Shown: one piece after another, positions 8,915 to 61,720 of the stretch
Numbering within the stretch: the stretch's first letter is position 1
Layout: every line of letters begins with the position of its first letter
Source: Desulfobacteraceae bacterium
Lineage (GTDB): Bacteria > Desulfobacterota > Desulfobacteria > Desulfobacterales > ETH-SRB1
Length of the DNA: 64,000 bases
Reading direction: 5' to 3'
NCBI GenBank assembly: GCA_030593145.1
Contig: JAUVHU010000005.1
Coordinates: 1,502 to 65,501 of the forward strand
Notes under the pieces: generated by a model
The model's database searches: none
What the model saw: the letters and a program-made list of their open reading frames with translations, nothing else
What the model was told of the DNA's origin: nothing
Made by a program: the position numbers and the translations under genes

Positions 8915-9217
8915 ATGAACGATATGTTGATTAGGGGCGATTTGATACCCCCAATTTCAGATACTCCTGGAGAAAGCAGTAAAGTCGGGAAAAACGCGAG
9001 TTCTTTTAGCAATGTTTTGAAGGACAAAATCGGGGAAATCAACAAACTTCAATTAGATGCCGATGCTGCTATCGCAAAAGTGGAGCTCAGTGACTCAGGG
9101 AGTATTCATGAGGCAATGATTGCCATGGAAAAGGCAAGTATTTCCTTCAAGACAATGTTGCAGGTAAGGAACAAGATGTTAGAAGCCTATCAGGAAGTCA
9201 TGCGGATGCAGGTGTAG
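8915..9217 (+). CDS. fliE: Flagellar hook-basal body complex protein FliE.
   Basis: 100 aa. The C-terminal FKTMLQVRNKMLEAYQEVMRMQV is typical of FliE. Position after flgC fits, and there is an AAGGAG SD. Confidence 0.9.
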   Translation: MNDMLIRGDLIPPISDTPGESSKVGKNASSFSNVLKDKIGEINKLQLDADAAIAKVELSDSGSIHEAMIAMEKASISFKTMLQVRNKMLEAYQEVMRMQV

Positions 9218-9268
9218 AGGTCAGGGATCGAGAGATCAGAGGTCGGAGGTCAGAAGTCGGAGAATCAG
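9217..9268 (+). repeat. Family B G-rich word arm (GGTCAGRGG / GGAGGTCAGAAGTCGG), single arm.
   Basis: GAGGTCAGGGATCGAGAGATCAGAGGTCGGAGGTCAGAAGTCGGAGAATCAG lies directly after the fliE stop. No complementary arm is nearby. Confidence 0.85.
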
Positions 9269-9296
9269 CAACCAGCAAACCCCTTGAAAGGAATAT

Positions 9297-10877
9297 ATGG
9301 ATTCGGTATTTCAATTTTTATCTCAGTCAGGGAAGGTCTTTAAATCATTAACCCCATCGAAAAGATTATCTATTCTTGTTGTCGCTGTCATTACTCTAAT
9401 TAGCATAGTGGCATTTGTCGTTTTTGTAAATCAGAAAGAATACAGAACGCTTTTTTCCAATCTTTCTACTGAGGATGCAGGAGAGATTGTTGCTGTATTG
9501 CAGGAAAAAAAGATTCCCTATAAGGTATCTTCTGCTGGCGATTCCATATTGGTTCCTGCTGAATATGTTTCTGAATTAAGACTCGACCTGGCCGCTTCAG
9601 GGATGCCCGGAGGCGGGGTGGTGGGCTTTGAAATATTTGACACCAAGAATTTCGGGGTTACAGATTTTGTACAGAAGCTGAATTATCAAAGAGCGCTCCA
9701 GGGTGAATTATCACGCACAATCACCGGCCTGGATGAGATTAAACATAGCAGGGTTCATATCGTAATACCTAAGAAATCACTTTTTGTTGAAAAACAGGCA
9801 AAACCGACCGCTTCGGTTATTATAAAACTAAAAACAGGCAGGAAGCTGCGGGCATCTCAGGTAGAAGGTATAGCCTCTCTCGTGGCTGGTAGCGTGGAAG
9901 GGCTGAGTCCTGAAGAGGTAATGATAGTTGACAGCGGAGGAAATATTTTGTTAGCGGTGAGAAGCGGGTCTCAATTGTCGAAGCGGACAGATTCACAAAT
10001 GGAATTTCAGAGAAATGTAGAAAAGAATCTGGCGAACAGGATTCAAACCATGCTGGAAAAGGTGGTGGGAGAAGGAAAGGTTGTGGCAAGGGTTTCCGCT
10101 GTTCTTGATTTTAGAGTGATGGAAAAAACAGAGGAATCCTACGATCCTGAAGAACCTGTTGTGAGGAGTCTGCACCGCAGGAGCGAAAAGTCGAGCGTAC
10201 CTGTCAGTGGAGGAGAAAGTACTGTCACCTCTACCAGAGGATTGAGTACAAAATCCTATGGCACAGATCATGAAAAAACGGATGAAATAGTCAATTATGA
10301 AATAAACCGGGTTATCAGCAAGACCGTAATGCCGGTAGGGGAAGTGGAAAAATTGTCAATGGCTGTGCTGGTAGATGGAGTTTATAATAAAAATGATAAA
10401 GGTGTTGAAGAGTTTCAGCCAAGATCGAAAAAAGAGATAGAGACTCTGGAAAGCCTTGTTAAAAGGTCGGTTGGTTTTGATGCCAAAAGGGGCGATCAGA
10501 TAGTGGTAACCAGCATCCCTTTCAGAAAAATTGAATTAGAAATGGGGCCTGCTGAGGGGGAGGGCTGGAAGGCTAAATTACATTTAATTATTCCGTTCAT
10601 AAAATATTTTGTTTCATTAATTGTTCTTGTATTTGTTTTGTTTTTTATTCTGCGTCCTTTAATCAATTTCATTACGACAAAGGACGTGACCGAAAAGATT
10701 GTCGCAGAGGGATTGCCTTCTGCTGGAGTTGATAAGTTGCCAATTAAAGATATTTCGTTGGATATTGGAGGAGAGATAGATGAAAGTCTCAGAGGCCTGG
10801 ATGCTGTTAGGGGTCTGGCCAGTCAGGATGCCAAGAGCTTTGCGGAATTATTGAGAAACTGGCTCAGGAAAGGATAA
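9297..10877 (+). CDS. fliF: Flagellar MS-ring protein FliF.
   Basis: 526 aa with an N-terminal TM and a C-terminal TM (IIPFIKYFVSLIVLVFVLFFIL). YscJ/FliF-like segment: LDLAASGMPGGGVVGFEIFD..QRALQGELSRTI. Confidence 0.95.
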   Translation: MDSVFQFLSQSGKVFKSLTPSKRLSILVVAVITLISIVAFVVFVNQKEYRTLFSNLSTEDAGEIVAVLQEKKIPYKVSSAGDSILVPAEYVSELRLDLAASGMPGGGVVGFEIFDTKNFGVTDFVQKLNYQRALQGELSRTITGLDEIKHSRVHIVIPKKSLFVEKQAKPTASVIIKLKTGRKLRASQVEGIASLVAGSVEGLSPEEVMIVDSGGNILLAVRSGSQLSKRTDSQMEFQRNVEKNLANRIQTMLEKVVGEGKVVARVSAVLDFRVMEKTEESYDPEEPVVRSLHRRSEKSSVPVSGGESTVTSTRGLSTKSYGTDHEKTDEIVNYEINRVISKTVMPVGEVEKLSMAVLVDGVYNKNDKGVEEFQPRSKKEIETLESLVKRSVGFDAKRGDQIVVTSIPFRKIELEMGPAEGEGWKAKLHLIIPFIKYFVSLIVLVFVLFFILRPLINFITTKDVTEKIVAEGLPSAGVDKLPIKDISLDIGGEIDESLRGLDAVRGLASQDAKSFAELLRNWLRKG

Positions 10878-10889
10878 AGGAAAAATTGT

Positions 10890-11897
10890 ATGGGCATGAC
10901 GAAAGAAGAAAAGGCGGCGGTGCTCCTTTTGTCTTTGGACGAAGAAGTGGCGGCAGATGTAATGAGAAATCTCTCACCGGATGAGATCAGACGTGTCGGA
11001 AAATGTATGAGCGGGTTAAGCGGGGTGGCGAATGAAGATGTAGGAAGTGTTGCCAGGGAATTTTGCTCGCTTGCCGAGGAAAAAGGGAATAGAATCATGT
11101 CTGTTCAAGGTAGTGTTGTCGAAAGCATTGTATTGAAAGCATTGGGAGAAGTTAAGGGAAAAGAGGTCTTAAAAGTAATTGAAGATGGCAGCTTTTTAAT
11201 GGAGAGTCCAGTTATTGAAAATTTGAGGAATACAGATACACAGATATTGATTGATGCCACAAAGACGGAACATCCTCAGACCATAGCCCTTATACTGGCG
11301 CATCTTAGACCGGAACAGACATCTGAAATTATGGAACAATTTCCACCTGATAAGCAAGAAGAGATAGCAAGGAGGATCGCGACACTTGGAAGCGTTCCGC
11401 GTGAGTTTATGGAGGATATGGCTAAAACGCTTGAATCGGAAATGGTTGCAGAAAAAGATCGTGGAGAGCAAATTGGCGGAGTTAAGATGGTTGCGGAGAT
11501 TTTGAACAGGATGAGCCGATCAAATGAAAATAGAATTTTAGAATCATTTGAAAAGTCAAATGCGGATTTAGCGGCTGATATCAGAAACCTCATGTTTACT
11601 TTTGATGATATTTTCAAGTTAGATGACAGGAGTATGAGAATATTGCTTGAGGAGATAGATCGTGAAGTTTTGGCCATTGCTATCAAAATAATTGACAGTG
11701 AAATGAGAGAAAGGATTTTTAAAAATATGTCAAAGCGTGCCGGTGGAATGCTAAGGGAAGATATAGAGGTTATGGCCCCCAAAAGACTGTCAGAAGTTGA
11801 AAAAAGCCAGAAAACGATTATTGATACCGCAAAGAGACTGGAAAGTGAAGAGAAGATAACAATAACAACTGGCGGTGAAGATGATGTATTTGTCTGA
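10890..11897 (+). CDS. fliG: Flagellar motor switch protein FliG.
   Basis: 335 aa. Motifs are EEKAAVLLLSLDEEVAADVMRNLSPDEIRRV and the conserved MFTFDDI. Confidence 0.95.
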   Translation: MGMTKEEKAAVLLLSLDEEVAADVMRNLSPDEIRRVGKCMSGLSGVANEDVGSVAREFCSLAEEKGNRIMSVQGSVVESIVLKALGEVKGKEVLKVIEDGSFLMESPVIENLRNTDTQILIDATKTEHPQTIALILAHLRPEQTSEIMEQFPPDKQEEIARRIATLGSVPREFMEDMAKTLESEMVAEKDRGEQIGGVKMVAEILNRMSRSNENRILESFEKSNADLAADIRNLMFTFDDIFKLDDRSMRILLEEIDREVLAIAIKIIDSEMRERIFKNMSKRAGGMLREDIEVMAPKRLSEVEKSQKTIIDTAKRLESEEKITITTGGEDDVFV

Positions 11898-12588
11898 TTC
11901 CAATAAAGTTGTCAAGGCGCAGGACATTAAACTCACGAATTCGAGTGGAAAAGCGCCGGTTCGTTTTATTCGGGGCATTTCCCATATTCCGGCAAATGAA
12001 GCAGATTTTAATGTTCGTGAAAATGGCATGAATATCGGTTCTGAGATTGAGGAGCCCGGGAAACAGGTAGAGGAAATAATAAAGATTACAGAAAAAGAAG
12101 CCTATGACAGAGGATTTTCGAAAGGAGTAACAGAGGGGATAAATAAGGAAAAGAGGAAACTGGCTCTTGCCGCAGAATCTGTTGCGAAATTGATCGGAGA
12201 ATTAAAAGTACTGAAGGAAGAATTTCTAAAAGACTCTGAAAAGGAAATAATCGATCTTGTTTTTTTAATAGCCGGCACTGTTATACATAAGGAAGTGAGT
12301 ACAGGCAGGGAAGTTCTTCTTTCCGTTCTTAGCGATGCGATGAGAAATATACAGGAGAGGGATGATGTCAGTATCCGCTTGAACCCTGAAGATCATCGTT
12401 ATATAACAGAGGCAAAACCCGATTTCCTCGATAGTTTCGGCAATATATTGATTGAGAAGGACAAAGAAATTGGTCAGGGCGGGGCGGTGATAAAGACACT
12501 TTTTGGGACACTTGATGCCAGGCTGGATCAGCAGTTAAATAAGATCAGGGAGCAGGTGTTAGGGGGCGGGGTGGAGTTTCACAGTTAA
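11875..12588 (+). CDS. fliH: Flagellar assembly protein FliH.
   Basis: 237 aa. It sits between fliG and fliI and has the E/K-rich coiled region plus a FliH-like C-terminal half. The last ~15 codons (KIREQVLGGGVEFHS) lie in the left arm of a family B hairpin. Confidence 0.8.
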   Translation: MKMMYLSDSNKVVKAQDIKLTNSSGKAPVRFIRGISHIPANEADFNVRENGMNIGSEIEEPGKQVEEIIKITEKEAYDRGFSKGVTEGINKEKRKLALAAESVAKLIGELKVLKEEFLKDSEKEIIDLVFLIAGTVIHKEVSTGREVLLSVLSDAMRNIQERDDVSIRLNPEDHRYITEAKPDFLDSFGNILIEKDKEIGQGGAVIKTLFGTLDARLDQQLNKIREQVLGGGVEFHS

Positions 12589-12634
12589 CGGTTCCGGAAA
12601 CCCCTGACCCCCGACCCCTGATCTCCGATTCCTG
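12543..12634 (+). repeat. Family B hairpin spanning the fliH stop codon.
   Basis: The left arm is GATCAGGGAGCAGGTGTTAGGGGGCGGGGTGGAG. The right arm is CCCCTGACCCCCGACCCCTGATCTCCGATTCCTG. Confidence 0.8.
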
Positions 12635-13957: not shown

Positions 13958-14105
13958 GGGACTGAAAAAAATGAACATCGAACATCGAACGTCCAACATC
14001 GAACATCGAATGGGAAAAGATAAGGAAAAGATGTTGGAATAATTTGAGGAGCGGAGCGACATCATTATTCGACGTTCAATGTTCGATGTTGGACGTTCAT
14101 CTTTT
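13958..14105 (+). repeat. Family A element, copy A3.
   Basis: GGGACTGAAAAAAATGAACATCGAACATCGAACGTCCAACATCGAACATCGAATGGGAAAAGATAAGGAAAAGATG..AATAATTTGAGGAGCGGAGCGACATCATTATTCGACGTTCAATGTTCGATGTTGGACGTTCATCTTTT. It starts 4 nt after the fliI stop. Confidence 0.9.
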
Positions 14106-14137
14106 AAATGAACCCTGAACCGCTGAACGGTTATCAT

Positions 14138-17244: not shown

Positions 17245-17420
<176 letters not shown>

Positions 17421-17503
17421 CAAAACAACGCTGTATGGAATAAATGCAACCTGTGAACGTTTACAAAATAACTTAGCGTTTATGTGAGTCAGGAGGGTAT
17501 GAA

Positions 17504-22879: not shown

Positions 22880-22909
22880 CAGGTCAGCCAGGCACAAAAG
22901 CCTGTAAAT

Positions 22910-22985
22910 AGTCGAGTAGTCGAGTAGTCGAGTAGTCGAGTAGCCAATCACTTGACCAATTTCCTGCTTGACCACTCGACCAATA
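22910..22985. repeat. Family C element: (AGTCGAGT)n left arm plus a conserved 35-nt right segment directly before the fliL SD.
   Basis: AGTCGAGTAGTCGAGTAGTCGAGTAGTCGAGTAGCCAATCACTTGACCAATTTCCTGCTTGACCACTCGACCAATA. Confidence 0.9.
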
Positions 22986-26391: not shown

Positions 26392-26398
26392 CCTAAAA

Positions 26399-26500
26399 TG
26401 AGCTATTAGCTATTAGCTTTTAGCTATTAGTCAAACTATATCAAGATATTATTAAATAATAACATTAGAGCTAACGGCTAATTGCTAACAGCTAATCGCT
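26399..26500. repeat. Hairpin with GCTATTAGC-word arms between fliP and fliQ.
   Basis: GAGCTATTAGCTATTAGCTTTTAGCTATTAG - 35 nt AT-rich loop - TAGAGCTAACGGCTAATTGCTAACAGCTAATCGC. Confidence 0.9.
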
Positions 26501-26529
26501 TAACGTAAGTTTAACAAAAAGAGATACGC

Positions 26530-27617: not shown

Positions 27618-27681
27618 GTGTCAGGAATCGGGGGTTAGGTGTCAGGGATTGGGGATTGAGGGCTGATTCCTGACTCCTGAT
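27618..27681. repeat. Family B hairpin between fliR and flhB.
   Basis: GTGTCAGGAATCGGGGGTTAGGTGTCAGGGATTGGGGATTGAGGG - CTGATTCCTGACTCCTGAT. Confidence 0.85.
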
Positions 27682-27692
27682 AACTAAAAAAT

Positions 27693-28769: not shown

Positions 28770-28826
28770 GATGAATTCGTAAAAAGTCAAAAAAGGTGGT
28801 TTTTCGGACTTTTTACGAGTTCATCA
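28769..28826. repeat. Family G palindrome (19-bp stem) directly after the flhB stop.
   Basis: GATGAATTCGTAAAAAGTC - AAAAAAGGTGGTTTTTCG - GACTTTTTACGAGTTCATC. Confidence 0.9.
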
Positions 28827-31024: not shown

Positions 31025-32147
31025 AAGATATGATGCGCTGAGTATAAATGAGGCTATGCAGAAGATAAAGGCGGATATGGGCCGGGATGCCATAGTGCTT
31101 TCCAGCAGAAGGCTGAATGGCAGGCTTGAGGTGGTTGCCGCGAGGGATGATAATTATGAAATTCTAAAAGAAAGTGAAGTTGAAAAATGCGAAAAAGAGG
31201 AATCAGATACTTTTTCCATAATCAGGTCGGATGTTAATGAGTTGAAGTCCTTTATTAAGGATTTCAAAAAGCAAGGGGGTGTTTATGCCGAGCTGACTGA
31301 GATAAAGGAGACAATGAGCCTTCTGTTTGATGTTCTTGGCATTCAAAATAATGGAAGAATTTCTTCTCCTCTGTCAAAAGTTTATTATCACCTGATTTCG
31401 ACAGGCGTATCGAAACAACGGGCTTGCGCATTAATAGAGGAGTTGAAGAAGGATAGCCGGGCGGAAGATCCGGATAATTATCATTATACTCTATCTGCTG
31501 TTGAGAATATGATGAAACGATCTATTACTTCTTCTTATAGGAATACGGGGAAAAAGAGGGTCTCCGTCTTTGTCGGTCCCGCGGGTGATGGGAAAACAAC
31601 AACCCTGGCAAAGCTGGCAGCGCGCTGTTTATTCGGAGATAAATTAAATGTAGGTATCATAACAATGGATACATATCGGATAGGCGCGGTGGAACAACTG
31701 AAAAGATATGCTGATATCATGGGTGTTCCCATGGAAGTTGCTTCTGAAAAGAAGGAGTTAGAGAGAGTTTTGAATAAGTTTGCCGACAAAGATGTCGTAC
31801 TGATAGATACGCCGGGGAAAAGTCGTGGTGATGAAAGTTATTTATTGAAATTGAAGAAATGTTTTACGATGGGTCTTTCCATGGAAACGAATCTTGTTTT
31901 AAGCATGACGTCAAGCCAGGAAAGCATGATGGATGCTGTAGCGAGATTTGGTGTTATAAATTATAATAACATTATATTTACTAAGCTGGATGATTCAAAA
32001 AAATTCGGTTCAATTTACAATGTTATTGATCATGTCGGTAAACCGGTGTTCTACGTTGCCAATGGACAAAATGTTCCTCAGGATTTAAATAAAATGGATC
32101 CCGCAAAGCTTGCAAGGCTGATAGTTGGAACAGGGATCAGGAGTTAG
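31014..32147 (+). CDS. flhF: Flagellar SRP-like GTPase FlhF.
   Basis: The N-terminus is MQIKRYDALSINEAMQKIKADMGRDAIVL. The GTPase motifs are GPAGDGKTTT, DTPG and TKLDD. The last codons (GTGIRS) are encoded by a family B arm. Confidence 0.9.
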   Translation: MQIKRYDALSINEAMQKIKADMGRDAIVLSSRRLNGRLEVVAARDDNYEILKESEVEKCEKEESDTFSIIRSDVNELKSFIKDFKKQGGVYAELTEIKETMSLLFDVLGIQNNGRISSPLSKVYYHLISTGVSKQRACALIEELKKDSRAEDPDNYHYTLSAVENMMKRSITSSYRNTGKKRVSVFVGPAGDGKTTTLAKLAARCLFGDKLNVGIITMDTYRIGAVEQLKRYADIMGVPMEVASEKKELERVLNKFADKDVVLIDTPGKSRGDESYLLKLKKCFTMGLSMETNLVLSMTSSQESMMDAVARFGVINYNNIIFTKLDDSKKFGSIYNVIDHVGKPVFYVANGQNVPQDLNKMDPAKLARLIVGTGIRS

Positions 32148-32238
32148 GGATCAGAGGTCAGGGATCAGGGGGCAGGGATCAGAGAACAGGGGAAAGGCGT
32201 AACCGGCTGATCCCCGATCCCCGAAACCTGATCCCCTG
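32131..32238. repeat. Family B hairpin spanning the flhF stop.
   Basis: CAGGGATCAGGAGTTAGGGATCAGAGGTCAGGGATCAGGGGGCAGGGATCAGAGAACAGGGG - AAAGGCGTAACCGG - CTGATCCCCGATCCCCGAAACCTGATCCCCTG. Confidence 0.9.
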
Positions 32239-33139: not shown

Positions 33140-33262
33140 GTTCAGCTACAAAGACACCGAGTCACAAAGGGAAAAAGTTACAGATATTTCTTTTTACTGC
33201 ACATAAAAAATAAATAATCATTTTAGAATGTTAGTGTCTTAGTGCCTTTACGGCTAAACTTA
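33140..33262. repeat. Hairpin with AAGACACCGAGTCACAAAGGG / GTGTCTTAGTGCCTTT arms upstream of fliA.
   Basis: CAGCTACAAAGACACCGAGTCACAAAGGG .. about 60 nt AT-rich loop .. GTTAGTGTCTTAGTGCCTTTACGGCTAAAC. The arm words are shared with 21136-21275. Confidence 0.8.
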
Positions 33263-33992: not shown

Positions 33993-34992
33993 ACAAATTG
34001 TTGCCGGATATTATAAAAGGGTGCTGATGGCCGTATGTCTGTGTATTGTGCTGTTTGCAGTCGGCTGGTTTATCAGGGGTAATGGGTCGGGGTCATGGGT
34101 CATCAAGGGTCAGGGATCAGGGATCAGGAGTCAGGGGTCAGGGATCGGGGGGCAGAAGTCAGAAGTTGGAAGTCAGGAGTCGGAGGCCGGAAGTCAGGAG
34201 TCGGAGGCCGGAAGTCAGGGGTCGGAAGTCAGATATCAGATGTCGGAAGTCAGAGGTTGGAAGTCAGAAGTTGGAAGTCAGGAGTCGGAAGTCGGAGGTC
34301 AGGAGTCGGAAGTCGGAAGTCAGGAGTCAGAAGTTGGAAGTCAGGAGTCGGAGGTTGGAAGTCAGGGGTCGGAAGTCAGAGGTCAGGGGTCGGAAGTCGG
34401 AGGTCAGGAGTCGGAAGTCGGAGGTCAGGAGTTGGAAGTCGGAGGTCAGGAGTCGGAAGTTGGAAGTCAGAGGCCGGAAGTCAGAAGTCAGGAGTCGGAA
34501 GTCGGGGGTCAGGAATCGGAGGCCGAAGGTCAGGGGTTGGAAGTCAGATATCAGATGTCGGAAGTCAGAGGTTGGAAGTCAGAAGTTGGAAGTCAGGAGT
34601 CGGAAGTCAGAGGTCAGGAGTCGGAGGCTGGAAGTCAGAGGCCGGAGATCAGAGGTCATGAGCCAATAGGTTCTGTAAAGAAAAGTTTGCCGGTGACTGC
34701 TTCCATGGAAGAACGGTTTGAATATTTTAATGATTTTATTGTTCATTTAAAAGGTGATCGCAGGAAAGACAGAGTGCTGATTTGTGATGTGGTTATTGAA
34801 CTGAATCAAGGGATGAAACTGCCGCAAAAGAGGATTGAGTTGAGAAAGGTCATATATAATACATTGAAAAAACTTTCGGGGTTGTCTGAAATCAAAAGAG
34901 GATTAAAAGAAAAAATTAAAAGCAGCTTGAATAATTTTATGGATGATGAAATAATAAAAGATGTGTACTTTGCTAGGTTTGTTTTATTGTAA
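33979..34992 (+). CDS. FliL-family paralog with a ~195-aa acidic heptad-repeat spacer between the TM helix and the FliL-like domain.
   Basis: TM VLMAVCLCIVLFAVGWFI is followed by about 27 heptads (GSQESEV / GGQESEV ..). The C-terminus FNDFIVHLKGDRRKDRVLICDVVIEL..LRKVIYNTLKKL..LKEKIKSSLNNFM..IKDVYFARFVLL aligns by eye with the FliL at 22998. The start overlaps the fliA stop by 14 nt. Confidence 0.65.
   Translation: MTLLRQIVAGYYKRVLMAVCLCIVLFAVGWFIRGNGSGSWVIKGQGSGIRSQGSGIGGQKSEVGSQESEAGSQESEAGSQGSEVRYQMSEVRGWKSEVGSQESEVGGQESEVGSQESEVGSQESEVGSQGSEVRGQGSEVGGQESEVGGQELEVGGQESEVGSQRPEVRSQESEVGGQESEAEGQGLEVRYQMSEVRGWKSEVGSQESEVRGQESEAGSQRPEIRGHEPIGSVKKSLPVTASMEERFEYFNDFIVHLKGDRRKDRVLICDVVIELNQGMKLPQKRIELRKVIYNTLKKLSGLSEIKRGLKEKIKSSLNNFMDDEIIKDVYFARFVLL
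34074..34660 (+). repeat. Expanded family B repeat (21-nt period, higher-order ~315-bp duplication) inside the FliL paralog. It is stop-free in all three + frames.
   Basis: GGAAGTCAGGAGTCGGAAGTC-type units. The ORF track shows three overlapping + ORFs (33979, 34046, 34095). GTCAGATATCAGATGTCGGAAGTCAGAGGTTGGAAGTCAGAAGTTGGAAGTCAGGAGTCGGAAGTC occurs twice (about 34225 and about 34540). Confidence 0.95.
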
Positions 34993-35022: not shown

Positions 35023-35799
35023 ATGGATGAGGACATGAACCAAGAAGAAATTTTCAAGAAACTGGAAAAAGAATTTGAATCGACTTTTGTGGAACTTGTT
35101 TCCGGCATTATTCACGACTTCGCCAACCCCTTAAATGGGATTTTGGGTCGTTCTGAGCTTTTGGAGGCAAAGGCGGAGCACCTTAAACTTATTATAAACG
35201 ATAAAGATAATATAGATGCCGAGATCCTGGAAGGTTGCAAAAAGATAATTTATGATTCCGGCTTGATTGCAAAGGAAGCGAACAGGCTTTTTGGCCTGTT
35301 TAATGATGTGACAGGAAAATTTCAGAGTCTGAGTAACGCTGCCTTACAAAAAATCAATTTATCCGAGCTTGTAGAGGCTGAAATGAAATTCCTTCAGTTT
35401 TACCGGAATATTAAGCATGATATTAAAAAGAAACTAACATTGGACAGGGAAATCCCGGAAATATCAGGAGTAAAAGCCGATTATTCCATTTTTCTGTCGG
35501 CGATAATCAGACGTTCTGTAAATTCCATGAAAGACAGCGAATTAAAGGAGCTGGTTGTTTCCACAGGTCATGATGATTCACATGTATATGTCAAAATTGA
35601 GGATACCGGAACGCCCATTCCCGAGATCGAAATAAAAGAAATAATCGAAAATTGGAATTCATCCGACTATCCACTTCATGATTTGAATGAAGATAACAGG
35701 TTGTTATATGCGCTATTTCTCTTGAAAAAATATGGAGTTCTTTTTCAGATTACACATGAGTCGGGTTTTAATGTTATTTTGATAAAGATACCTTATTGA
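35023..35799 (+). CDS. Sensor-less histidine-kinase-like protein with a degenerate ATP-binding domain.
   Basis: The H-box is IHDFANPLNGILGRSELL. The HATPase-like region has KIEDTGTPIP (G1-like), but I see no GxGxG G2 box (LYALFLLKKYG in its place). There is no TM or sensor domain. Confidence 0.55.
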   Translation: MDEDMNQEEIFKKLEKEFESTFVELVSGIIHDFANPLNGILGRSELLEAKAEHLKLIINDKDNIDAEILEGCKKIIYDSGLIAKEANRLFGLFNDVTGKFQSLSNAALQKINLSELVEAEMKFLQFYRNIKHDIKKKLTLDREIPEISGVKADYSIFLSAIIRRSVNSMKDSELKELVVSTGHDDSHVYVKIEDTGTPIPEIEIKEIIENWNSSDYPLHDLNEDNRLLYALFLLKKYGVLFQITHESGFNVILIKIPY

Positions 35800-35890
35800 G
35801 GATTTAGGGATTGGGAAATTGAGGGATTGTGGAATTAAAATCAATATAATACATTTAATTCCCAAATTCCTAAATTCGCAATTAAGCGAA
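35799..35890. repeat. Family E hairpin (core GGAATTAAAATCAATA, tail AATTAAGCGAA).
   Basis: GGATTTAGGGATTGGGAAATTGAGGGATTGTGGAATTAAAATCAATATAATACATTTAATTCCCAAATTCCTAAATTCGCAATTAAGCGAA. Confidence 0.85.
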
Positions 35891-37815: not shown

Positions 37816-38102
37816 ACAAAGACAAAAGAGAGACAACAATTGCCGCCGCTCTAAAATATGACGGAAACAGTAATTCGGCGCCGAAGGTTACAGCGAGGGG
37901 AAGAGGCGCCATTGCTGAAAAGATTATAGAACTTGCAAAAAAACATAAGGTGCCGATAAAGGAAGATCCGGCTTTGGCACAGATCCTGAGCCGGCTTGAT
38001 ATAGATGAACAAATCCCTTCTGAGCTTTACAAGGCCGTTGCTGAAATCCTGGCCTTTGTTTATTCAATCAATGAACGGTACAGGGAGCAGGGAAAAAGAT
38101 GA
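37812..38102 (+). CDS. Stand-alone FlhB C-terminal (CC subdomain) homolog, YlqH/EscU-C-like, without an NPTH site.
   Basis: AALKYDGNSNSAPKVTARGRGAIAEKIIELAKKHKVPIKEDPALAQILSRLDIDEQIPSELYKAVAEILAFVYS aligns residue for residue with FlhB 28520-28745 (ALCYDQASASAPKVVAKGAGFIAENIKEIA..LYKAVAEVLAFVYS). Confidence 0.85.
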   Translation: MNKDKRETTIAAALKYDGNSNSAPKVTARGRGAIAEKIIELAKKHKVPIKEDPALAQILSRLDIDEQIPSELYKAVAEILAFVYSINERYREQGKR

Positions 38103-38300
38103 ACATCGAAGATCGAACGTCCAACATCGAATGTTGAATGGGAAAAGACAAGAAAAAAATGAACATCTAAAAAAAAACAGAAATAGCTGTTGAATGTTCG
38201 GTATTGGTTTTTCATTCGATTTTAGAATAATTTGAGGAGCGGAGCGACATCATTATTCGATGTTCGACGTTCAATGTTCGATGTTGGACGTTAATCTTTA
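38092..38300 (+). repeat. Family A element, copy A5. It supplies the TGA stop of the FlhB-C-like gene.
   Basis: AAAAAGATGAACATCGAAGATCGAACGTCCAACATCGAATGTTGAATGGGAAAAGAC.. GGTATTGGTTTTTCATTCGATTTTAGAATAATTTGAGGAGCGGAGCGACATCATTATTCGATGTTCGACGTTCAATGTTCGATGTTGGACGTTAATCTTT. Confidence 0.9.
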
Positions 38301-42896: not shown

Positions 42897-42976
42897 AATT
42901 AGGTGTTAAGTGTTAAGGATTAAGTCGAAGCAATTCTTTGTTTTATCAATCACTTAATGTCTAATACTTAACACAG
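42897..42976 (+). repeat. Family D element, copy D1 (core GTCGAAGCAATTCTTTGTTTTATCAAT).
   Basis: GAATTAGGTGTTAAGTGTTAAGGATTAAGTCGAAGCAATTCTTTGTTTTATCAATCACTTAATGTCTAATACTTAACAC. Confidence 0.9.
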
Positions 42977-42979
42977 TCA

Positions 42980-43336
42980 ATGAGGAACCGGATGGAAGAA
43001 ATAAGATTAAATGGATCACCAATAGTGGTGCTTTCCGGGCAGGAAGAGCCGAACCGGCCTGACCGGCATCATCTGGAAATCAAGGAAGAGAAGCTGAAAA
43101 AAGCGTGTGCTGATTTTGAATCCATCTTCATCAATTTCATGCTTAAGACCATGCGGAATACGGTTCCGCAAAGCGGAACCAACAAGCTTCCCGGCAAGGA
43201 TATTTATGCCGCAATGATTGATCAAAAGGTAGCGGAAGACCTCGCAAAAAGAGGGGGAGGCATAGGCCTTCAGGAAATGCTTTTACGCCAGCTTAAATCG
43301 GGGGGCGGGGATCAGGGGTCAGGGATTAAGGATTAG
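42980..43336 (+). CDS. flgJ: Rod-binding protein (FlgJ N-terminal domain only, no muramidase domain).
   Basis: KLKKACADFESIFINFMLKTMRNTV..DIYAAMIDQKVAEDLAKRGGGIGLQEML matches the rod-binding domain pattern. The C-terminus (GGGDQGSGIKD) is repeat-encoded. Confidence 0.75.
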   Translation: MRNRMEEIRLNGSPIVVLSGQEEPNRPDRHHLEIKEEKLKKACADFESIFINFMLKTMRNTVPQSGTNKLPGKDIYAAMIDQKVAEDLAKRGGGIGLQEMLLRQLKSGGGDQGSGIKD

Positions 43337-43380
43337 GTTGAAGCAATTCTTGGTTTTATCAATTGCTTAACACCTAACAC
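43307..43380 (+). repeat. Family D element, copy D2 (chimeric arms).
   Basis: GGGGATCAGGGGTCAGGGATTAAGGATTAGGTTGAAGCAATTCTTGGTTTTATCAATTGCTTAACACCTAACAC. The right arm complements GTGTTAGGTGTTAAG-type arms (as at 61565), not its own left arm. Confidence 0.85.
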
Positions 43381-43400
43381 TTTTGAACCTGAATAATTAC

Positions 43401-45692: not shown

Positions 45693-45772
45693 AGAGATTA
45701 GAAGTCGGAGGTCAGAAGATTAGAGGGTTAGGTTGAGGCAATTCTTTGTTTTTTATCAATTACCCAACATGT
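45693..45772 (+). repeat. Family D element, copy D3.
   Basis: AGAGATTAGAAGTCGGAGGTCAGAAGATTAGAGGGTTAGGTTGAGGCAATTCTTTGTTTTTTATCAATTACCCAACATG. Confidence 0.85.
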
Positions 45773-47030: not shown

Positions 47031-47138
47031 GGATAGATTGAGGAATTGGGGAATTGAGGGATTGAGGAATTAAAATCAATAGAACACCTTCAATTTCTGA
47101 ATTCCTTAATTCCTGAATTCACAATTAAGCGAAGCGAA
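47031..47138. repeat. Family E hairpin, second copy.
   Basis: GGATAGATTGAGGAATTGGGGAATTGAGGGATTGAGGAATTAAAATCAATAGAACACCTTCAATTTCTGAATTCCTTAATTCCTGAATTCACAATTAAGCGAAGCGAA. Confidence 0.85.
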
Positions 47139-47145
47139 AAATAAT

Positions 47146-47394
47146 ATGCTAATCCTGACAAGGAAGTTAGGGGAATCAATCAGAATCGGTGATAATATAA
47201 AGATTACTGTTTCTGATATAAAAGGTAAACAGATAAGAATAGGGATTGAAGCGCCAGAAGACGTAGCTGTTCATCGCGAAGAGGTTTACCGGGTGATCAG
47301 GGAGAATGTTCTGGCAGCAGGATACGATGTTTCAAATGATAATAGCCTGTCTCATGTATGGAACAGGTTGAAAAATCCGAAGGAGGAAGTTTAG
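47146..47394 (+). CDS. csrA: Carbon storage / translational regulator CsrA.
   Basis: [48 protein letters not shown] is an almost textbook CsrA core. Confidence 0.95.
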
Positions 47395-47882: not shown

Positions 47883-47890
47883 AACAGATA

Positions 47891-47968
47891 GATAGGCTGA
47901 AGGCATTTAGGTTGTAGGTTACAAAAACTAATCGCCTTCAGTCTAAACAATCTTAGTAATTACAATAT
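47891..47968. repeat. Family H hairpin (TAGGCTGAAGGC / GCCTTCAGTCT) with a CAGTCTAAACAATCTTAGTAATTAC core.
   Basis: GATAGGCTGAAGGCATTTAGGTTGTAGGTTACAAAAACTAATCGCCTTCAGTCTAAACAATCTTAGTAATTAC. Related cores lie at about 49110 and about 49253. Confidence 0.8.
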
Positions 47969-47970: not shown

Positions 47971-48175
47971 CGGTTAGGCGTTAACCTCTTGATAAAACAA
48001 AGAGCTGCTTCAACTTGTCCCTTAATCTTCTAATCCATTAAATCTCTAAATTCCTTTTTTGTTCCTTTGACCTCTAATCTCCGATTCCTGATCCTGATCT
48101 CTAATTCCCAGCTTCTAATTTCCAATCCGATTTCCGGCCCCTGATCCCCTCCCTACGATCCTTGTCTCCAATCGA
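47971..48175 (-). repeat. Family D core in inverted orientation (D4), followed by a ~145-nt C-rich multi-word arm.
   Basis: TTGATAAAACAAAGAGCTGCTTCAAC is the reverse complement of the D core. It is followed by CCCTTAATCTTCTAATCC..CCTCTAATCTCCGATTCCTGATCCTGATCTCTAATTCCCAGCTTCTAATTTCC..CCCCTGATCCCCTCC. Confidence 0.85.
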
Positions 48176-53535: not shown

Positions 53536-53559
53536 GGGGCAGTGATCGGGGATCAGGGA

Positions 53560-53705
53560 ATGAGTTTTAAGAGTTGTCGGGATCTGGAGGTTTGGCAAAA
53601 GGCAATGGAACTGGTAGTGGTAGTAGAATCCTATCGGATAGGCTCTTAAGCAGGACAGCGGAAGTTGGTCGAATGCTTAACGGGTTACGAAAATCCCTGA
53701 GAAAG
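53560..53705 (+). pseudogene. Internally deleted, frameshifted relic of a four-helix-bundle protein gene (23S rRNA intervening-sequence protein family).
   Basis: The N-terminal piece MSFKSCRDLEVWQKAMELVVVVESYR (stop at 53647) and, in another frame, the C-terminal piece SRTAEVGRMLNGLRKSL are the two hallmark ends of that ~120-aa family. About 70 aa in the middle are missing. Confidence 0.6.
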
Positions 53706-53741
53706 TATAATCGACCCCTGTATAAATGTTATGGTAACTTT

Positions 53742-54224: not shown

Positions 54225-54232
54225 GGTAACCT

Positions 54233-54452
54233 CACAGTTTATAGTTATCGGTTCACGGTTAAAAAATAGATTGCACAAGGATTGGTTGCGGAGCTGAGAA
54301 CACATATTTATATTTCACGAGAGCTTATATATTTTCTGATTTAGATGCGAAAGAATTAATTCAAAAGTTAAAATCAATATCCAAAACGCTTCAATCGTTG
54401 CATAGTTCTATTAGAAAAAACTGTGAACTGTGAACCGACAACCGTGAACGGT
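54233..54452. repeat. Long-range inverted repeat of family N words enclosing about 150 nt (cheD-cheY spacer).
   Basis: The left arm is CACAGTTTATAGTTATCGGTTCACGGTT. The right arm is AACTGTGAACTGTGAACCGACAACCGTGAACGGTT, ending 13 nt before ATG 54466. Confidence 0.8.
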
Positions 54453-54465
54453 TAAGGGAGTTATT

Positions 54466-56953: not shown

Positions 56954-59164
56954 ATGAAAGAATATGATTCTTTGATGAATTTGATTGATAGTATAGCTTC
57001 CGACTTTTTATTTTTCGATAGCAAGGAAATCGATGTGCCGGCCGCAGGTAATTTTCTTAATAAATTGGAGCAGTTAATAAAAGAAGCGGAGGCTTTAGAG
57101 GCAGATCGGTTAAAAAGGGTAGCCAGTGGATTAAGTAGTCTTCTCGAGAAGATCATTCTTGAAAGAATAGAGGATAAAGAAGCAGGATTCGGCGTCTTTG
57201 AAAAGGGTATTACCCTGATGCAGGAGATCGGTGACAGTCTTAAGAACACTGGCGGTTACGAAGGCGATATTGAAAGTTTTATGGAGTCAATTGCCGTTCT
57301 TACTGGAGAGCAGGGAGCGGAGAGCGGAGAGCAAATAGCGGAAAGCGAAGAGCAAGTAGCAGAGAGCAAAGAGCAGGGAGCGGAGAGCGACGAGATACAG
57401 GACGAGTCGCTGTTGAGGGATTTTATTGTTGAAGGTCTGGAATACATTGATGAGATTGAGGTAAATTTATTGAATCTGGAGCAGGACCCTGAGAATTTAG
57501 ATTGTGTTAATGCTATATTCAGACCGTTTCATTCCATCAAGGGGGTGGCCGGGTTTCTCAATCTAGAAGCGATTCGTGATCTTGCCCATACCCTTGAGAA
57601 CCTTCTGGATAAGGTAAGAAATAAGGAATTATTGGTGAGTTCCCGGCTTATAGATATAATTCTTGATGGATCCGATGTTCTGAAGGCGATAATTGTTAAA
57701 TTGAAAGACGATATGGAAGGCAATCCGACTGAACCTTTAGAGATTGATACATCTACCTTGAAAAAGCGGATAGAAAGTATTGAACAGGGTGCTCCGGATA
57801 CCGTTGAAGTGAAAAAACTGGGTGAAATACTGGTCGAAGACGGTGCTATAACAGAGGAGAACCTGGAGCAAGGCCTTGAAGTTGCAGAACAATCGATTCC
57901 ACCCAAGAAAATTGGGGAAGCCCTGATATCTGAAGGTAAGGTTACTCCGAAGCAGGTATCACAGGCCCTGAGAAAACAGACAAAGAAGGCCGTAGATACC
58001 GCTGTGGTAAGGGTAAATATAAAGAAGCTGGATGATTTAATCGATATGGTTGGTGAACTGGTCATTACACAGTCGATGATCAGGCAGAATTCGTTTATTC
58101 TATCAAATTCCGATATAAGGTTGAGCAGAGATGTTTCCCGTCTGTCCAGTATTACATCGGAACTCCAGAGAACCTCTACCAGCTTGAGAATGGTGCCTAT
58201 CAAGCAGACATTTCAGAGGATGTCCCGTCTTGTCAGGGATCTGTCCAGAGATGCCGGAAAGCATGTTGGTGTTGTCACGGAAGGTGAGGATACGGAGATA
58301 GACAGAAATATGGTGGAGGAGATATATAATCCGCTTGTACACATGGTACGGAATGCCGTAGATCATGGTATAGATTCTTCTGAGGAGCGTATAAAGGCCG
58401 GTAAACCTGAAAAGGGCATGGTACGGCTCAAGGCCTTTCACAGAGGAGGTAATGTTGTAATCGAAATATCGGATGACGGAAAAGGGCTGGATAGGGACGT
58501 AATACTGAAAAAGGCTGTCGAGAAAGAACTTATCGATAGTTCAGATGATCTTTCGGATCAGGATATTTATAAGCTGATTTTTTCCGCCGGTTTTTCAACT
58601 GCTGCGAAAGTAACGGATATCTCCGGGCGGGGAGTGGGGATGGATGTAGTGAAACAGGCCGTGGAAAAACTGCGGGGAAAAATAGAGATTGACAGTGTTA
58701 TTAATGAAGGTTCTACCTTTGCGCTTGGCTTTCCTCTTACCATGGCCATTATTGACGGCATGATTGTGAGGGTGGGCGGTGAAAGGTATATTATTCCTAC
58801 TACCGCTATCAGACAGTTGTTGCGTCCCAAGGAGGAATCTTATAACAATATAGTCGGCAAGGGTGAAACGATAAACGTGATGGGCAATCTTTTGCCGTTG
58901 GTAAGGTTGTATAAGATCTTCGGTATAGAGCCTGAGCATGAAAATCCCTGGGAAGCCATAGTGGTGGTGCTTGAAGGTGAAAACAGATCCAAGTGTTTGC
59001 TGGTGGATGAGATTTTAGGTGAAGAGGAAGTGGTGATCAAAAGTCTTGGTGAAAGTTTGAAAAGCAGCAAAGGAGTTTCCGGTGGTGCTATCATGGGGGA
59101 TGGTAATGTAGGATTGATATTGGACCCGGAAGGGCTGTTTGAATTGAGTGAGAGTTTAGGTTGA
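56954..59164 (+). CDS. cheA: Chemotaxis histidine kinase CheA, with a ~150-aa N-terminal extension and a repeat-encoded acidic linker.
   Basis: HPt domain ([14 protein letters not shown]), dimerisation domain, HATPase ([27 protein letters not shown]) and a CheW-like C-terminus. The linker [27 protein letters not shown] is encoded by word repeats. Confidence 0.95.
57305..57392 (+). repeat. GAGCAGGGAGCGGAGAGC-word repeat within cheA coding sequence.
   Basis: GGAGAGCAGGGAGCGGAGAGCGGAGAGCAAATAGCGGAAAGCGAAGAGCAAGTAGCAGAGAGCAAAGAGCAGGGAGCGGAGAGCGA is the reverse complement type of the arm at 38447-38529. Confidence 0.85.
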
Positions 59165-60085: not shown

Positions 60086-60120
60086 AAAGGAAAGTGAAAA
60101 AACTAAGAAACACTGCAAGA

Positions 60121-60262
60121 GTTTGAAGTGAACTAAAGTTTAAAGTGAGCTAAAGTTAATGAATTCTGTCAATTATATAAAATCAGTGGAGCGAAGCGAC
60201 TCCATAACTTTAGGCACTTTAGCTCACTTTAGGCACTTTTAACTTGTACGACTTCAAGTAAA
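60121..60262. repeat. Family F hairpin, copy F1 (core TGTCAATTATATAAAATCAGTGGAGCGAAGCGACTCCAT).
   Basis: GTTTGAAGTGAACTAAAGTTTAAAGTGAGCTAAAGTT - AATGAATTCTGTCAATTATATAAAATCAGTGGAGCGAAGCGACTCCAT - AACTTTAGGCACTTTAGCTCACTTTAGGCACTTTTAACTTG. Confidence 0.9.
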
Positions 60263-60320
60263 ACAGCTTCTTTCAGGGGCAAACCAAAGCTTGGTTCTTT
60301 GGACCAGGATTCTTTATCAT

Positions 60321-61481
60321 TCAGAATCTTATACATATCACTTTGCCGGATATCCATGCCCTTTCAAAAGCCCATGCAATTTCGGCATCAAATTGAGTTC
60401 CTCTATTTCTTGCTATTTCCTTAAGAGCATCTTCCGGCTTTAAGGCTTTTCTATATGGTCTGTTGCTGGTCATTGCATCAAAGCTGTCAGCCACTGCCAA
60501 CAGTCTTCCTTTGATGGAGATATTTTCTCCAACCAGGCCCCTGGGGTAACCCTTGCCGTCAAATCTTTCATGGTGGTCAAGGATATAGGGTGTTACAGAT
60601 TTTAAGAAAGAGATATCTTTGACTATTTGAGCGCCAATCAAGGGGTGTGCTTTTATGTGATTGTATTCATTATCGGTAAGCTTTCCCGGCTTGTTCAGAA
60701 TGAAATCGGGGATGCCTATCTTGCCGACGTCATGAAGCATCCCTCCCCAATCGATGAGCTCTATTTCATTTTTGTCCCAGTGAAGCTCCTCGGCTATTGC
60801 TTTAGAAAATCGAGCAACTCTTTCAGAATGTCCTTTCGTGTATGGATCACGCGCTTCTATGGAGTTGGTAATAGCTTTGATGGTATAGAAATAAGCAGAT
60901 TTCAGATCATCAAACAGGTATGCGTTTTCCAGTGACAAGGAAAAGAAATCTACGAGAATGTGTAGAAGTTTTGAGGTTTGCTGTCTTATGAAATCTTTGT
61001 CTTCTTCAAAGACAATGACAACCGCGCCTATAGTTCTTTTCAGGTTGGAAAGGGGAGCTATCATGACACTTAAAAGCCGACCGCTTTCTTTTCCAAAAAC
61101 TTCAGTCTGGACACTCAGGGGAATGCCATTGCTGATGACCCGTCCGAAATTCCCAAGGCTGATTTGAGCCTCGACTTCCTTTTGAATAACAGCCGAAAAT
61201 TTTTCAGGTTTTGATATTTTGTGGATAAACTCAATACCTTTTTCTTCTACAAGAAAGACTGAGCAAACTTCAATTTTAACCAGTTGCCTGAGCCTGACAA
61301 GCCATGTCTCAAGTATGTGATGAACATCATGAGATAAGAGAACCTCGGATTGAAAGCGGCTTAACCGATCAAGCTTATCTTGAATGCTGATAAGCGCTCT
61401 GTTCGATTCTTCCAAAAAGTGCAGTTTTTTGATCATTGGTTCAAGTTCAATTTGATCGATTTGTGTTTGTTTGTTTTCCAT
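60321..61481 (-). CDS. GAF-like sensor plus HD-GYP c-di-GMP phosphodiesterase.
   Basis: 386 aa. The motifs are GMLHDVGKIGIPDFILNKPGKLT and HHERFDGKGYPRGL. The N-terminal half is GAF-like. Confidence 0.85.
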   Translation of the reverse strand: MENKQTQIDQIELEPMIKKLHFLEESNRALISIQDKLDRLSRFQSEVLLSHDVHHILETWLVRLRQLVKIEVCSVFLVEEKGIEFIHKISKPEKFSAVIQKEVEAQISLGNFGRVISNGIPLSVQTEVFGKESGRLLSVMIAPLSNLKRTIGAVVIVFEEDKDFIRQQTSKLLHILVDFFSLSLENAYLFDDLKSAYFYTIKAITNSIEARDPYTKGHSERVARFSKAIAEELHWDKNEIELIDWGGMLHDVGKIGIPDFILNKPGKLTDNEYNHIKAHPLIGAQIVKDISFLKSVTPYILDHHERFDGKGYPRGLVGENISIKGRLLAVADSFDAMTSNRPYRKALKPEDALKEIARNRGTQFDAEIAWAFERAWISGKVICIRF

Positions 61482-61554
61482 TTTTAATAAACTCTTACTT
61501 TTCTCATAAGGACAGGCTTTTATGAGCCTGAACGAAAATCTCGATTTTTTGTAG

Positions 61555-61720
61555 GTTGGTGTTTGTGTAGTGTTAAGTGTTAGGTGTTAAGTGTTAGGTG
61601 TTAAGGAATTATGTCAATTATATAAAATCAGTGGAGCGACACGCGGCGCAAGCGCCTGCGCTGCGCGAGCGACTCCATAACTTTAGGCACTTGAACTTTG
61701 AACCGTGAACGGTTCTTGTA
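61555..61720. repeat. Family F element, copy F2. It is chimeric (GTGTTAAG-type left arm, TTTAGGCAC-type right arm) and its core is split by a GC-rich 30-mer.
   Basis: GGTTGGTGTTTGTGTAGTGTTAAGTGTTAGGTGTTAAGTGTTAGGTGTTAAGG - AATTATGTCAATTATATAAAATCAGTGGAGCGA[CACGCGGCGCAAGCGCCTGCGCTGCGCGAG]CGACTCCAT - AACTTTAGGCACTTGAACTTTGAACCGTGAACGGTTC. Confidence 0.9.

Follow-up and report, generated by a model that had tools for sequence, protein, structure and literature searches.

Inverted word-array hairpins between flagellar genes of a Desulfobacteraceae bacterium: several families as probable derivatives of four-helix-bundle gene cassettes

What are the repeats that occupy the gaps of a bacterial flagellar operon, and where do they come from? 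This question is raised by a stretch of 64,000 nucleotides from a Desulfobacteraceae bacterium (contig JAUVHU010000005.1), referred to here as the window. It has a G+C content of ~42%, and nearly all of its genes lie on the + strand and form a flagellar/chemotaxis super-operon (FliF, FliI, FlgE, FlhA, FlgI, FlgK, a methyl-accepting chemotaxis protein and CheA). FlgK and FliM are 86% and 82% identical to their counterparts in Desulfobacteraceae bacterium Eth-SRB1, the closest named relative, and the homologues of both proteins form a graded series of uncultured relatives; based on the flagellar genes and these nearest homologues, the host is a member of the Desulfobacteraceae and neither a cyanobacterium nor a Beggiatoa. 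An initial annotation had described modular elements in nearly every intergenic gap, in which arms of reiterated words surround a few loop cores. This build of periodic arms and a small set of loop cores was confirmed, and every start listed for families B to F, both one-off word pairs and families G and H were found in place or within a few bases. In our judgement, these intergenic repeats are probably palindromic elements with inverted arrays of 7-9-nt words as arms, several families of which are versions, devoid of the open reading frame (ORF) or with a decayed one, of cassettes that carry a four-helix-bundle gene.

Catalogues of bacterial tandem heptamer arrays go back to 1990, and the arrays have been interpreted as targets for fingerprinting, as G-quadruplexes or as sites for regulators; to our knowledge, no origin has been established for them. 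We also know of no function assigned to the TIGR02436/PF05635 family outside Avd, the accessory protein of diversity-generating retroelements. If the arrays and the ORF are one element, the origin of the former and the function of the protein family would both become testable.

Using Tandem Repeats Finder (TRF), 101 short-period arrays were detected in the window, the commonest periods being 7 (30 arrays), 8 (15), 14 (14) and 9 (8) nt. They cover 14.8% of the intergenic versus 2.25% of the coding bases, and in a shuffled intergenic control ~11 of 7284 nt (~0.16%) were covered. The window contains ~33 array bases per kb, and the other flagellar loci that were fetched contain 11 or fewer. The claim that nearly every gap is filled was mildly overstated: of the 40 gaps, 24 pass the threshold of TRF, and imperfect arrays were recognised by eye in at least 8 more. 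The elements always follow a stop codon and precede the conserved ribosome-binding region of the gene downstream, and their arms measure 20-40 nt. A motif, AGCGRAGCGA, is found eight times (4969, 7852, 14050, 17359, 25129, 38238, 47128 and 60190), always on the + (sense) strand, versus 0.26 expected occurrences; it is located at the right end of loops (families A and F) or directly past the right arm (the family C copy at 25084 and the family E copy E3, directly upstream of csrA).

Folding was measured against dinucleotide shuffles. Eleven two-armed elements fold with z-scores of -3.5 to -9.3, two family B copies fold more weakly (12543, z = -1.8; 32131, z = -2.2), and three arrays with a single arm, at 9217, 16281 and 41616, do not fold (z = +1.8 to -1.0). 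In a cross-pairing test, left arms paired at -0.93 kcal/mol/nt with their own right arms, at -0.90 with those of their word family and at -0.41 with those of other families. Pairing is thus about twice as strong within as across families, and the complementarity of the two arms of an element, as originally described, is not a by-product of low complexity, the alternative that this test addressed. Complementarity is specific to the word family rather than to the individual copy. The suggestion that structure and not sequence is conserved therefore holds between word families, but not within a family, where arms are interchangeable. Intrinsic terminators were ruled out for all families except A, the only one with a U-rich tail after the stem; the stems of the others are not followed by a U-tract.

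The origin of the elements is suggested by what their loops contain elsewhere. In relatives, word-armed loops repeatedly hold an ORF of ~120 amino acids that belongs to Pfam PF05635 (23S_rRNA_IVP/bAvd), is Avd-like and matches the NCBIfam model TIGR02436 ("four helix bundle protein") at 138 bits versus a cutoff of 24; one search gave more than 5,500 clusters for this family at E<=1e-20. In the Eth-SRB1 stretch (L084), such cassettes were found at 11384-11824 with GGTCAGG/CCCTGAT arms and at 905-1204 with AGAAGGT/ACCTTCT arms. The latter arms recur at a different locus in another relative, around a reversed cassette (L082:4700-4960). A further cassette (L087:11361-11958) has the GAACATC/GATGTTC arms of family A, a reversed four-helix-bundle gene (L084:14876-15180) is accompanied by the family H word GGCTGAAGG, and a remnant of the N-terminal part of the ORF is enclosed by GGATTAAG arms (L090:~1377-1469). 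Outside the phylum, a Nitrospiraceae metagenome-assembled genome contains a cassette with AGGGTCA arms (L015:18290-18720).

In the window itself, derivatives that lack the ORF or retain a decayed one predominate; they stand to the full cassette as MITEs (miniature transposable elements with inverted repeats) stand to insertion sequence (IS) elements. Family A, with GAACATC/GATGTTC arms, is represented by five copies on the + strand. Copy 1 (4863..5030) has a GC-rich mini-hairpin nested in its left arm (4888-4918); copy 2 (7750..7945) retains in its loop the 3' flank of a type-c four-helix-bundle cassette and has a GC-rich insert in its right arm (7893-7934); copy 3 (13966..14107) has arms of 38 nt and folds with z = -6.0; copy 4 (17255..17425) has a duplicated left arm and is preceded by a (AGGCACAG)n array (17195-17237). 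Throughout their length, the loops are colinear with the L087 cassette flanks, and copy 5 (A5, 38095..38300), an ORF-deleted cassette, still carries the last codons and the stop, AAACAGAAATAG (KQK*), of the type-c ORF that is intact in L087. Family A is thus an ORF-deleted derivative. Between CheR and CheD, a decayed type-b cassette (53536..53720, + strand) has a B-type left arm (GGGGCAGTGATCGGGGATCAGGGA), a right-arm stub (CGACCCCTG) and 25 codons each from the start and the end of a type-b ORF, which are 76-81% identical to Eth-SRB1 (tblastn, 1e-7; hidden Markov model, 6e-4). A hairpin of AACYGTG words (54225..54465, + strand; arms 54234-54260 and 54426-54452) also holds an ORF remnant in its loop: 54263-54430 corresponds to the frameshifted C-terminal half of a four-helix-bundle ORF, a weak match (E = 0.05 and 0.8) in two colinear pieces. 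The arms of family B are those of type-b cassettes, and at least five word types serve as cassette arms, namely A (GAACATC), B (GGTCAGG/GGATCAG), H (GGCTGAAGG), AACYGTG and GGATTAAG; for A, B and AACYGTG, the window itself provides part of the basis for this, and for H and GGATTAAG it comes from relatives only.

Type-b proteins that are 72-76% identical are accompanied by GGGTCAG-type words at three unrelated loci, between FlgK and FlgL (Eth-SRB1, L084), between genes for acyl-CoA synthetase and enoyl-CoA hydratase (L106) and between argG and an enoyl-CoA hydratase gene (L116), and the same words are present at the type-b remnant between CheR and CheD in the window. The Nitrospiraceae homologue, 48-54% identical to type-b, has the similar word AGGGTCA. 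The proteins of PCC 7120 and Stanieria (79% identical) have the word CTGCCYT in common, those of Calothrix and N. punctiforme (81% identical) the word GGGTGTA, and proteins that are at most 57% identical have differing words, the Nitrospiraceae homologue excepted. ORF subtype and arm word go together at unrelated loci and in different orders.

When plasmids were searched by tblastn with the Eth-SRB1 protein, 50 records were returned, mostly from Nostocales, and the flanks of 14 of these genes were inspected. The ORF lies between inverted word arrays in Nostoc edaphicum (GGGAGTA), Calothrix and N. punctiforme (GGGTGTA), Anabaena 90 (GGTGACA), Geminocystis, Picosynechococcus, Stanieria, Azospirillum (GGACAGA) and Riemerella (AAGGTTC). 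By a strict ungapped measure of inverted complementarity with a threshold score of >=12, flanks of 14 of 25 four-helix-bundle ORFs or remnants passed, versus 1 of 63 host genes in the window; the ORFs and remnants span Cyanobacteriota, Bacteroidota, Pseudomonadota (alpha), Desulfobacterota, Nitrospirota and Gemmatimonadota. Within 50 kb of a Nostoc plasmid, the four-helix-bundle gene scores 30 and none of the 44 other coding sequences reaches 12 (next-best score 11; median of all 45, 7). At 4 kb from the full cassette, the same region holds hairpins with the word AGGGAGT that lack an ORF; this parallels the window. In plasmids of other cyanobacteria, cassettes with heptamer arrays were seen inside CRISPR-Cas operons (L093, L099, L100), where they separate cas6 from cas4 in Anabaena 90 and Pseudanabaena and cmr2 from cmr3 in Picosynechococcus; such insertions could be behind the "associations" of 23S rRNA IVP domains with CRISPR loci that have been published.

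Ten orthologous stretches from relatives were compared, and the orthologous gaps, whose comparison had been proposed at the outset, differ by presence or absence of elements and by whole units. In a compact genome (L089/L123; FlgK 84% and FliM 81% identical), only 23 nt separate FlgK and FlgL, 5 nt FlgL and CsrA, 13 nt FlgH and FlgI, 13 nt FliP and FliQ and 2 nt FlhB and FlhA. Its junctions range from -59 to 83 nt, those of the window and Eth-SRB1 from 38 to 620 nt at the same places, and the spacers of 21 junctions sum to 939, 2473 and 2441 nt in the compact genome, the window and Eth-SRB1, respectively. Between FlgK and FlgL, seven genomes have five different elements, the eighth being the compact one: the window, L082 and L090 share a D-core element, L083 has a B-armed element accompanied by other small repeats, L088 has a hairpin of GATTGAT words, and L084 and L087 have word-armed cassettes that carry an ORF. 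Between strains whose FlgK is 97% identical, E3 and copies D2 and D3 of family D vary by whole word units. Comparison of a filled site (window 53536-53741) with its empty counterpart (9 nt in L088) revealed a clean insertion directly past the stop codon, with no obvious target-site duplication. As the same junctions hold different elements or none in relatives, the elements are lineage-specific insertions or expansions with quick turnover. A scan of genome contigs based on FlhA returned relatives that are at most 66% identical, some of which have weaker heptamer hairpins.

Several observations weigh against a derivation from gene cassettes. Families C, D, E and F yielded no ORF remnant, and the ties of these four to the cassette are the shared architecture and the AGCGRAGCGA motif only. 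With the D core as query, a scan of metagenomes gave nothing beyond the orthologous junction of one relative and one chance match in a coding region. Eleven of the 25 genes or remnants stay below the flank-test threshold, some with short arms by eye and two with a one-sided array; in PCC 7120 the array is one-sided, Pseudanabaena, possibly like Gemmatirosa, has directly oriented arrays on both sides, and the Oscillatoria gene among the 14 inspected lacks flanking arrays. The compact genome itself retains a few hairpins (FliR-FlhB), a hint that some of those retained may serve a host function. Sense-strand stems fold better in 16 of 24 cases (98 versus 67 G-U pairs); this bias is modest and could be explained by strand-biased C-to-T mutation on a G-rich coding strand. 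That arms and ORF move as one unit is only what we infer from the sequences, because neither a target-site duplication nor a transposase-like enzyme was identified. Lookup of two proteins encoded on multiple contigs (P0179 and P0154, both at loci with B-type words) gave one locus from many samples and no direct proof of transposition.

Other origins have to be weighed against these data. The arrays might have arisen in place by slippage and have been kept for a role in RNA, such as 3'-end protection, partial termination or translational coupling, similar to repetitive extragenic palindromes (REPs) and bacterial interspersed mosaic elements (BIMEs), the ORFs being later lodgers that home into the loops. 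Such a history, which would fit the changes in unit number between near-identical strains, a possible single-unit seed (ACCCCTGA) in a compact junction, the many hairpins with loops of 15-30 nt and no ORF trace, the FliR-FlhB hairpin kept in all three genomes compared and the slightly greater stability of the stems in sense orientation, is nevertheless rather unlikely in our view. Local slippage would not yield the same ORF subtype and word at unrelated loci, across genera and once in another phylum; moreover, the family A copies share cassette-derived loop sequence, one relative does without the elements at most junctions, and a U-rich tail is confined to family A.

It is improbable that the arrays are multimeric binding sites for a host regulator that tunes the flagellar genes, such as CsrA on GGA words or IHF/HU as proposed for Geobacter. 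The word at a given junction varies among close relatives and the compact relative has none, unlike a conserved regulatory site, GGA does not occur in the words of four families (A, C, D and F), and the inverted arrangement and the ORF in the loop would be left unexplained, even though many words contain GGA (GGGATCA, AGGATTA, TGAGGAAT, TAAGGGAT), the cluster encodes CsrA and FliW, an E element lies directly upstream of csrA and single arrays on the sense strand are more often G-rich (~10) than C-rich (~4). Regulator binding has also been proposed in the papers on Geobacter (PMC2700814) and Beggiatoaceae (PMC4679880). Mobilisation as MITEs or as REP-derived REPINs by a REP-associated tyrosine transposase (RAYT), an IS200/IS605 TnpA or another transposase encoded elsewhere would account for elements that form hairpins, are intergenic and in some cases nested or chimeric, and family G has true terminal inverted repeats (TIRs). 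We consider it very improbable: the arms are tandem words of variable number and not a fixed palindrome of 20-30 nt with a conserved head, and the gene found recurrently inside the elements encodes a four-helix-bundle protein. The RAYT or IS200/IS605 partner that had been proposed was not seen, nor was another transposase, among the scanned or relative-matched genes of the window or in Pfam listings of ~150 kb of related loci.

The derivation from four-helix-bundle cassettes also has to be placed among known systems. Short tandemly repeated repetitive sequences (STRRs) are tandem heptamer arrays of cyanobacteria, with the Nostocales as their classical home; the arrays were reportedly described by Mazel et al. 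in 1990, and small dispersed repeats nested in them are said to have been described by Elhai et al. in 2008. Similar to STRRs, the elements of the window are intergenic tandem heptamers at many loci with very small nested elements; they differ in their words and in their host, which belongs to the Desulfobacteraceae and not to the (heterocystous) cyanobacteria. Nostocales four-helix-bundle genes are bracketed by inverted STRR-type arrays, and no link between STRR or heptamer arrays and the PF05635/TIGR02436 gene cassette was found in the searchable literature. The architecture had been thought to be undescribed, which is not the case: in addition to STRRs, ~70 convergent pairs of intergenic GGGAATC heptamer arrays, capable of forming stem-loops and read as G-quadruplex motifs, are known from Xanthomonas (PMC4692102), and multicopy elements of tandem heptanucleotides, intergenic and in some cases intragenic, have been read as IHF/HU sites in Geobacter metallireducens (PMC2700814). 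The consensus of the latter, MTYCTGA, is the complement of a family B word. Both reports concern one or two words per genome without loop cores or an ORF, and inverted pairing is stated for Xanthomonas only. The new point appears to be the link between inverted heptamer arrays and the four-helix-bundle gene family.

TAACTGA repeats of Beggiatoaceae, cyanobacteria and Bacteroidetes, almost all of them direct single-word arrays with one inverted case, are likewise intergenic heptamers just upstream of start codons, and their patchy distribution among phyla overlaps with that of the four-helix-bundle genes (PMC4679880). REPs, BIMEs and REPINs resemble the elements of the window as intergenic hairpin repeats in operons that are probably selfish and may affect mRNAs (PMC3116915); however, REPs are fixed palindromes tied to a RAYT, whereas the arms in the window are periodic and variable in length. 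The fixed imperfect palindrome of ~20-35 nt with a conserved head, arranged in inverted doublets, was not found. As had been stated, the elements are distinct from classic REPs and BIMEs, from enterobacterial repetitive intergenic consensus (ERIC) sequences and from CRISPR, in which identical repeats are regularly spaced by unique spacers, whereas the words follow each other head-to-tail without spacers and the arms are inverted. No part of the window matched Rfam at gathering thresholds, no rRNA is present, and a tRNA scan was negative. Of the features that define MITEs, derivation by internal deletion is shown for family A and the element at 53536, family G has TIRs, and no clear target-site duplication was seen at the filled versus the empty site; the "autonomous" parent cassette encodes no known transposase.

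The closest parallel comes from the intervening sequences (IVSs) of 23S rRNA genes. In Coxiella, the IVS contains an ORF of the same family, inverted repeats at its ends pair into a 28-bp stem that is cut by RNase III, and the authors recall an old idea that the ORF serves mobility (PMC4990558). IVSs with an S23p ORF, as in Leptospira and Coxiella, have in common with the cassettes a PF05635/TIGR02436 ORF in the loop of a long stem, a sporadic distribution that points to horizontal transfer and the existence of ORF-less versions (PMC4990558). Unlike IVSs in helices 9, 25 and 45 of 23S rRNA, the elements of the window lie in mRNA junctions between protein genes, and their arms are composed of 7-9-nt words in variable copy number. 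Of ORF family, inverted-repeat stem and location, only the last, outside 23S rRNA, differs from an IVS. On a more tentative level, which we would not yet favour, the STRR-type arrays of cyanobacteria, Desulfobacterota, Nitrospirota, Bacteroidota and proteobacteria might all be arms or relics of a single widespread and hitherto unrecognised class of palindromic mobile cassette that is the same element as the ORF-bearing IVSs. Such a class would account for the origin of STRRs and would give the large TIGR02436 family a function, and an oligomeric protein that recognises its own word array would make ORF subtype and word evolve together.

In the proposed model, a full cassette consists of a four-helix-bundle gene in the loop of a word-armed hairpin, and smaller GC-rich hairpins and the TIR-bounded family G are nested among the word-armed elements. 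Insertions lie after stop codons in otherwise tightly packed operons, where elements are gained, lost and replaced quickly, and the arms change their number of units by slippage while complementarity is kept. Arms and ORF would move as one unit. The Avd-like oligomeric protein may recognise its own word array. On polycistronic mRNAs, the stems of 20-40 bp are predicted, by analogy with their rRNA-borne relatives, to be cut by RNase III, which would split or stabilise operon transcripts. The questions opened by this model are whether the protein binds its own array, whether RNase III splits operon mRNAs and how cassettes spread without a recognisable transposase; the link between ORF and arrays merits a genome-wide test.

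The remaining families of the window differ in how they relate to each other, and elements are on the + strand unless stated otherwise. Single-armed and chimeric copies and small elements nested in others exist, as initially described. A family B hairpin at 12542..12624 pairs GGTCAGG/GGATCAG words with CCTGACC, and its left arm overlaps the end of fliH. A second one at the FliR-FlhB junction (27618..27685; z = -4.8) has a B-type counterpart in the compact relative L123, and a third lies between FlhF and FlhG (32127..32235), two genes that overlap in the compact relative. Single-armed G-rich B arrays are found at 9217..9275, 14561-14596, 16281-16366 and 41616-41685, single C-rich ones at 20183-20232 and 48030-48150. 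The family C hairpin at 22908..22985 pairs (TAGTCGAG)4.4 with CTCGAC words (z = -7.0), and further copies lie at 15247-15310, 20262-20352, 25084-25125, 28826-28925 and 49795-49860.

Family D comprises copy 1 (42897..42975) with GTGTTAA arms around the GAAGCAATTCTTTGTTTTATCAAT core (z = -5.8), copy 2 (43297..43385), whose left array lies within the 3' end of the rod-binding gene and supplies its stop codon from the word GATTAG, copy 3 between FlgK and FlgL (45693..45770), with a 2-nt insertion in a core that is kept in L082 and L090, and the inverted copy 4 (47971..48150, - strand) with a long C-rich array. The core was found at 42924 and 43337 (+) and 47988 (-) with at most 3 mismatches each (0 expected by chance), and the arms of all copies except D1 barely pair. 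Since the core is kept at orthologous sites only, D is a local family of four copies within 5 kb and not a dispersed one. The E core is exact at 35831 and 47066; at 21136, an element is present as annotated, but it contains only a weak relative of this core. One copy (35797..35885; z = -4.3) has ATTGAGGR octamers as arms, and E3 (47035..47146; z = -6.6), which lies upstream of csrA and ends in AAGCGAAGCGA, occupies a junction of 5 nt in L089 and L090. Of family F, copy 1 (60120..60245) consists of 9-mer words (AAAGTGAGCT) around a core that holds a GGAGCGAAGCGACTCC mini-hairpin, and copy 2 (61555..61700) is a chimera that combines a GTGTTAA-type left array with an F core, interrupted by a GC-rich insert of 28 nt (61640-61667), and with an F right arm; two exact 28-nt copies of the core lie at 60167 and 61612. 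The complementarity noticed between the right arm of D2 and the left arm of F2, 18 kb apart, is real and arises because both use GTGTTAA words, the left-arm word of F2 being that of D1.

The MITE-like family G is represented by the element at 28770..28825 (z = -9.3), with TIRs of 19-25 nt (GATGAATTCGTAAAAAGTC...), and by a long copy at ~1850-1995; its word TTCGTAAAAAG occurs four times versus 0.07 expected. The TIRs, GATGAATTCGTAAAAAGTC / GACTTTTTACGAGTTCATC, were seen at 1850-1995, 8043-8060 and 28770-28825 and in a relative (L083:7170-7300). Long copies carry GGATTCCGGC...GCCGGAATGAC hairpin modules, which also stand alone in arrays of L083, L084 and L090. The family H hairpin (47890..47950; z = -6.1) is formed by GGCTGAAGG words at 47894 and 47935, and the word recurs at 59584. 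A hairpin of GCTATTA/GCTAAYN words lies between FliP and FliQ (26397..26506), a junction of 13 nt in the compact relative. The pair at 33140 was also found, as a CAGCYACAAAGACAC...GTGTCTTAGTG hairpin (33145..33262), but it is not a one-off, as its outer arms recur at 21136-21270 and in L122, L088 and L090. Scans of viral contigs with the A core, the C arm and the E core returned no matches.

Word arrays also extend into coding sequence. In a FliL-like gene (33979-34992), an array at 34153..34653 (+) comprises twenty-three in-frame 21-nt units of three family-B-type heptamers each; it adds ~190 amino acids of SEVGSQE-like 7-residue repeats, and the orthologue in the compact relative has 157 amino acids in total. 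In cheA (56954-59164), 21-nt repeats of GGAGAGC-type words (57305-57394) encode a (GAESxEQ)n linker. fliH, the fliJ-like gene, the N-terminal ORF call of fliK, flhF and the rod-binding gene end in a word array (12588, 14596, 16314, 32147 and 43336); their stop codons come from words such as GATTAG, and the arrays thus rewrite C-termini and confuse ORF calls. A spurious TTG start at 53574 runs across the cassette remnant. The contigs of the closest relatives (L081, proteins P0241-P0243) are about one gene long (1.5-2.4 kb), which fits breaks of short-read assemblies at repeats on both sides of each gene. In practical terms, the hairpins break short-read assemblies, create false ORFs and C-terminal extensions and can expand into coding sequence.

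Smaller repeats accompany the word-armed elements. Very small GC-rich hairpins, reminiscent of the small dispersed repeats of Elhai, are nested in cores or arms at 61640-61667, ~49676-49708 (reverse), 4888-4918, 7893-7934 and 61731-61794, and related CGCCGCAGGCGGA inserts were seen in E loops of L084, L088 and L090. Short AACCGTGAACGGTT palindromes lie just upstream of ribosome-binding sites (flgE, flgI and others) at 18155-18170, 41697-41712, 54441-54456 and 61697-61712; the one at flgI is kept in L083, L084 and L087 and is absent from compact genomes. These palindromes may be collapsed AACYGTG hairpins or a candidate binding site. Finally, the dispersed small repeat GTTCCCATGCTCCTGCGTGGGAATGCATA, an imperfect palindrome, is present at 49236-49265 and recurs in the gaps of several relatives (L083:11420-11450; L122:6745-6775 and 13135-13165; the tail of L082), often within word-armed loops.

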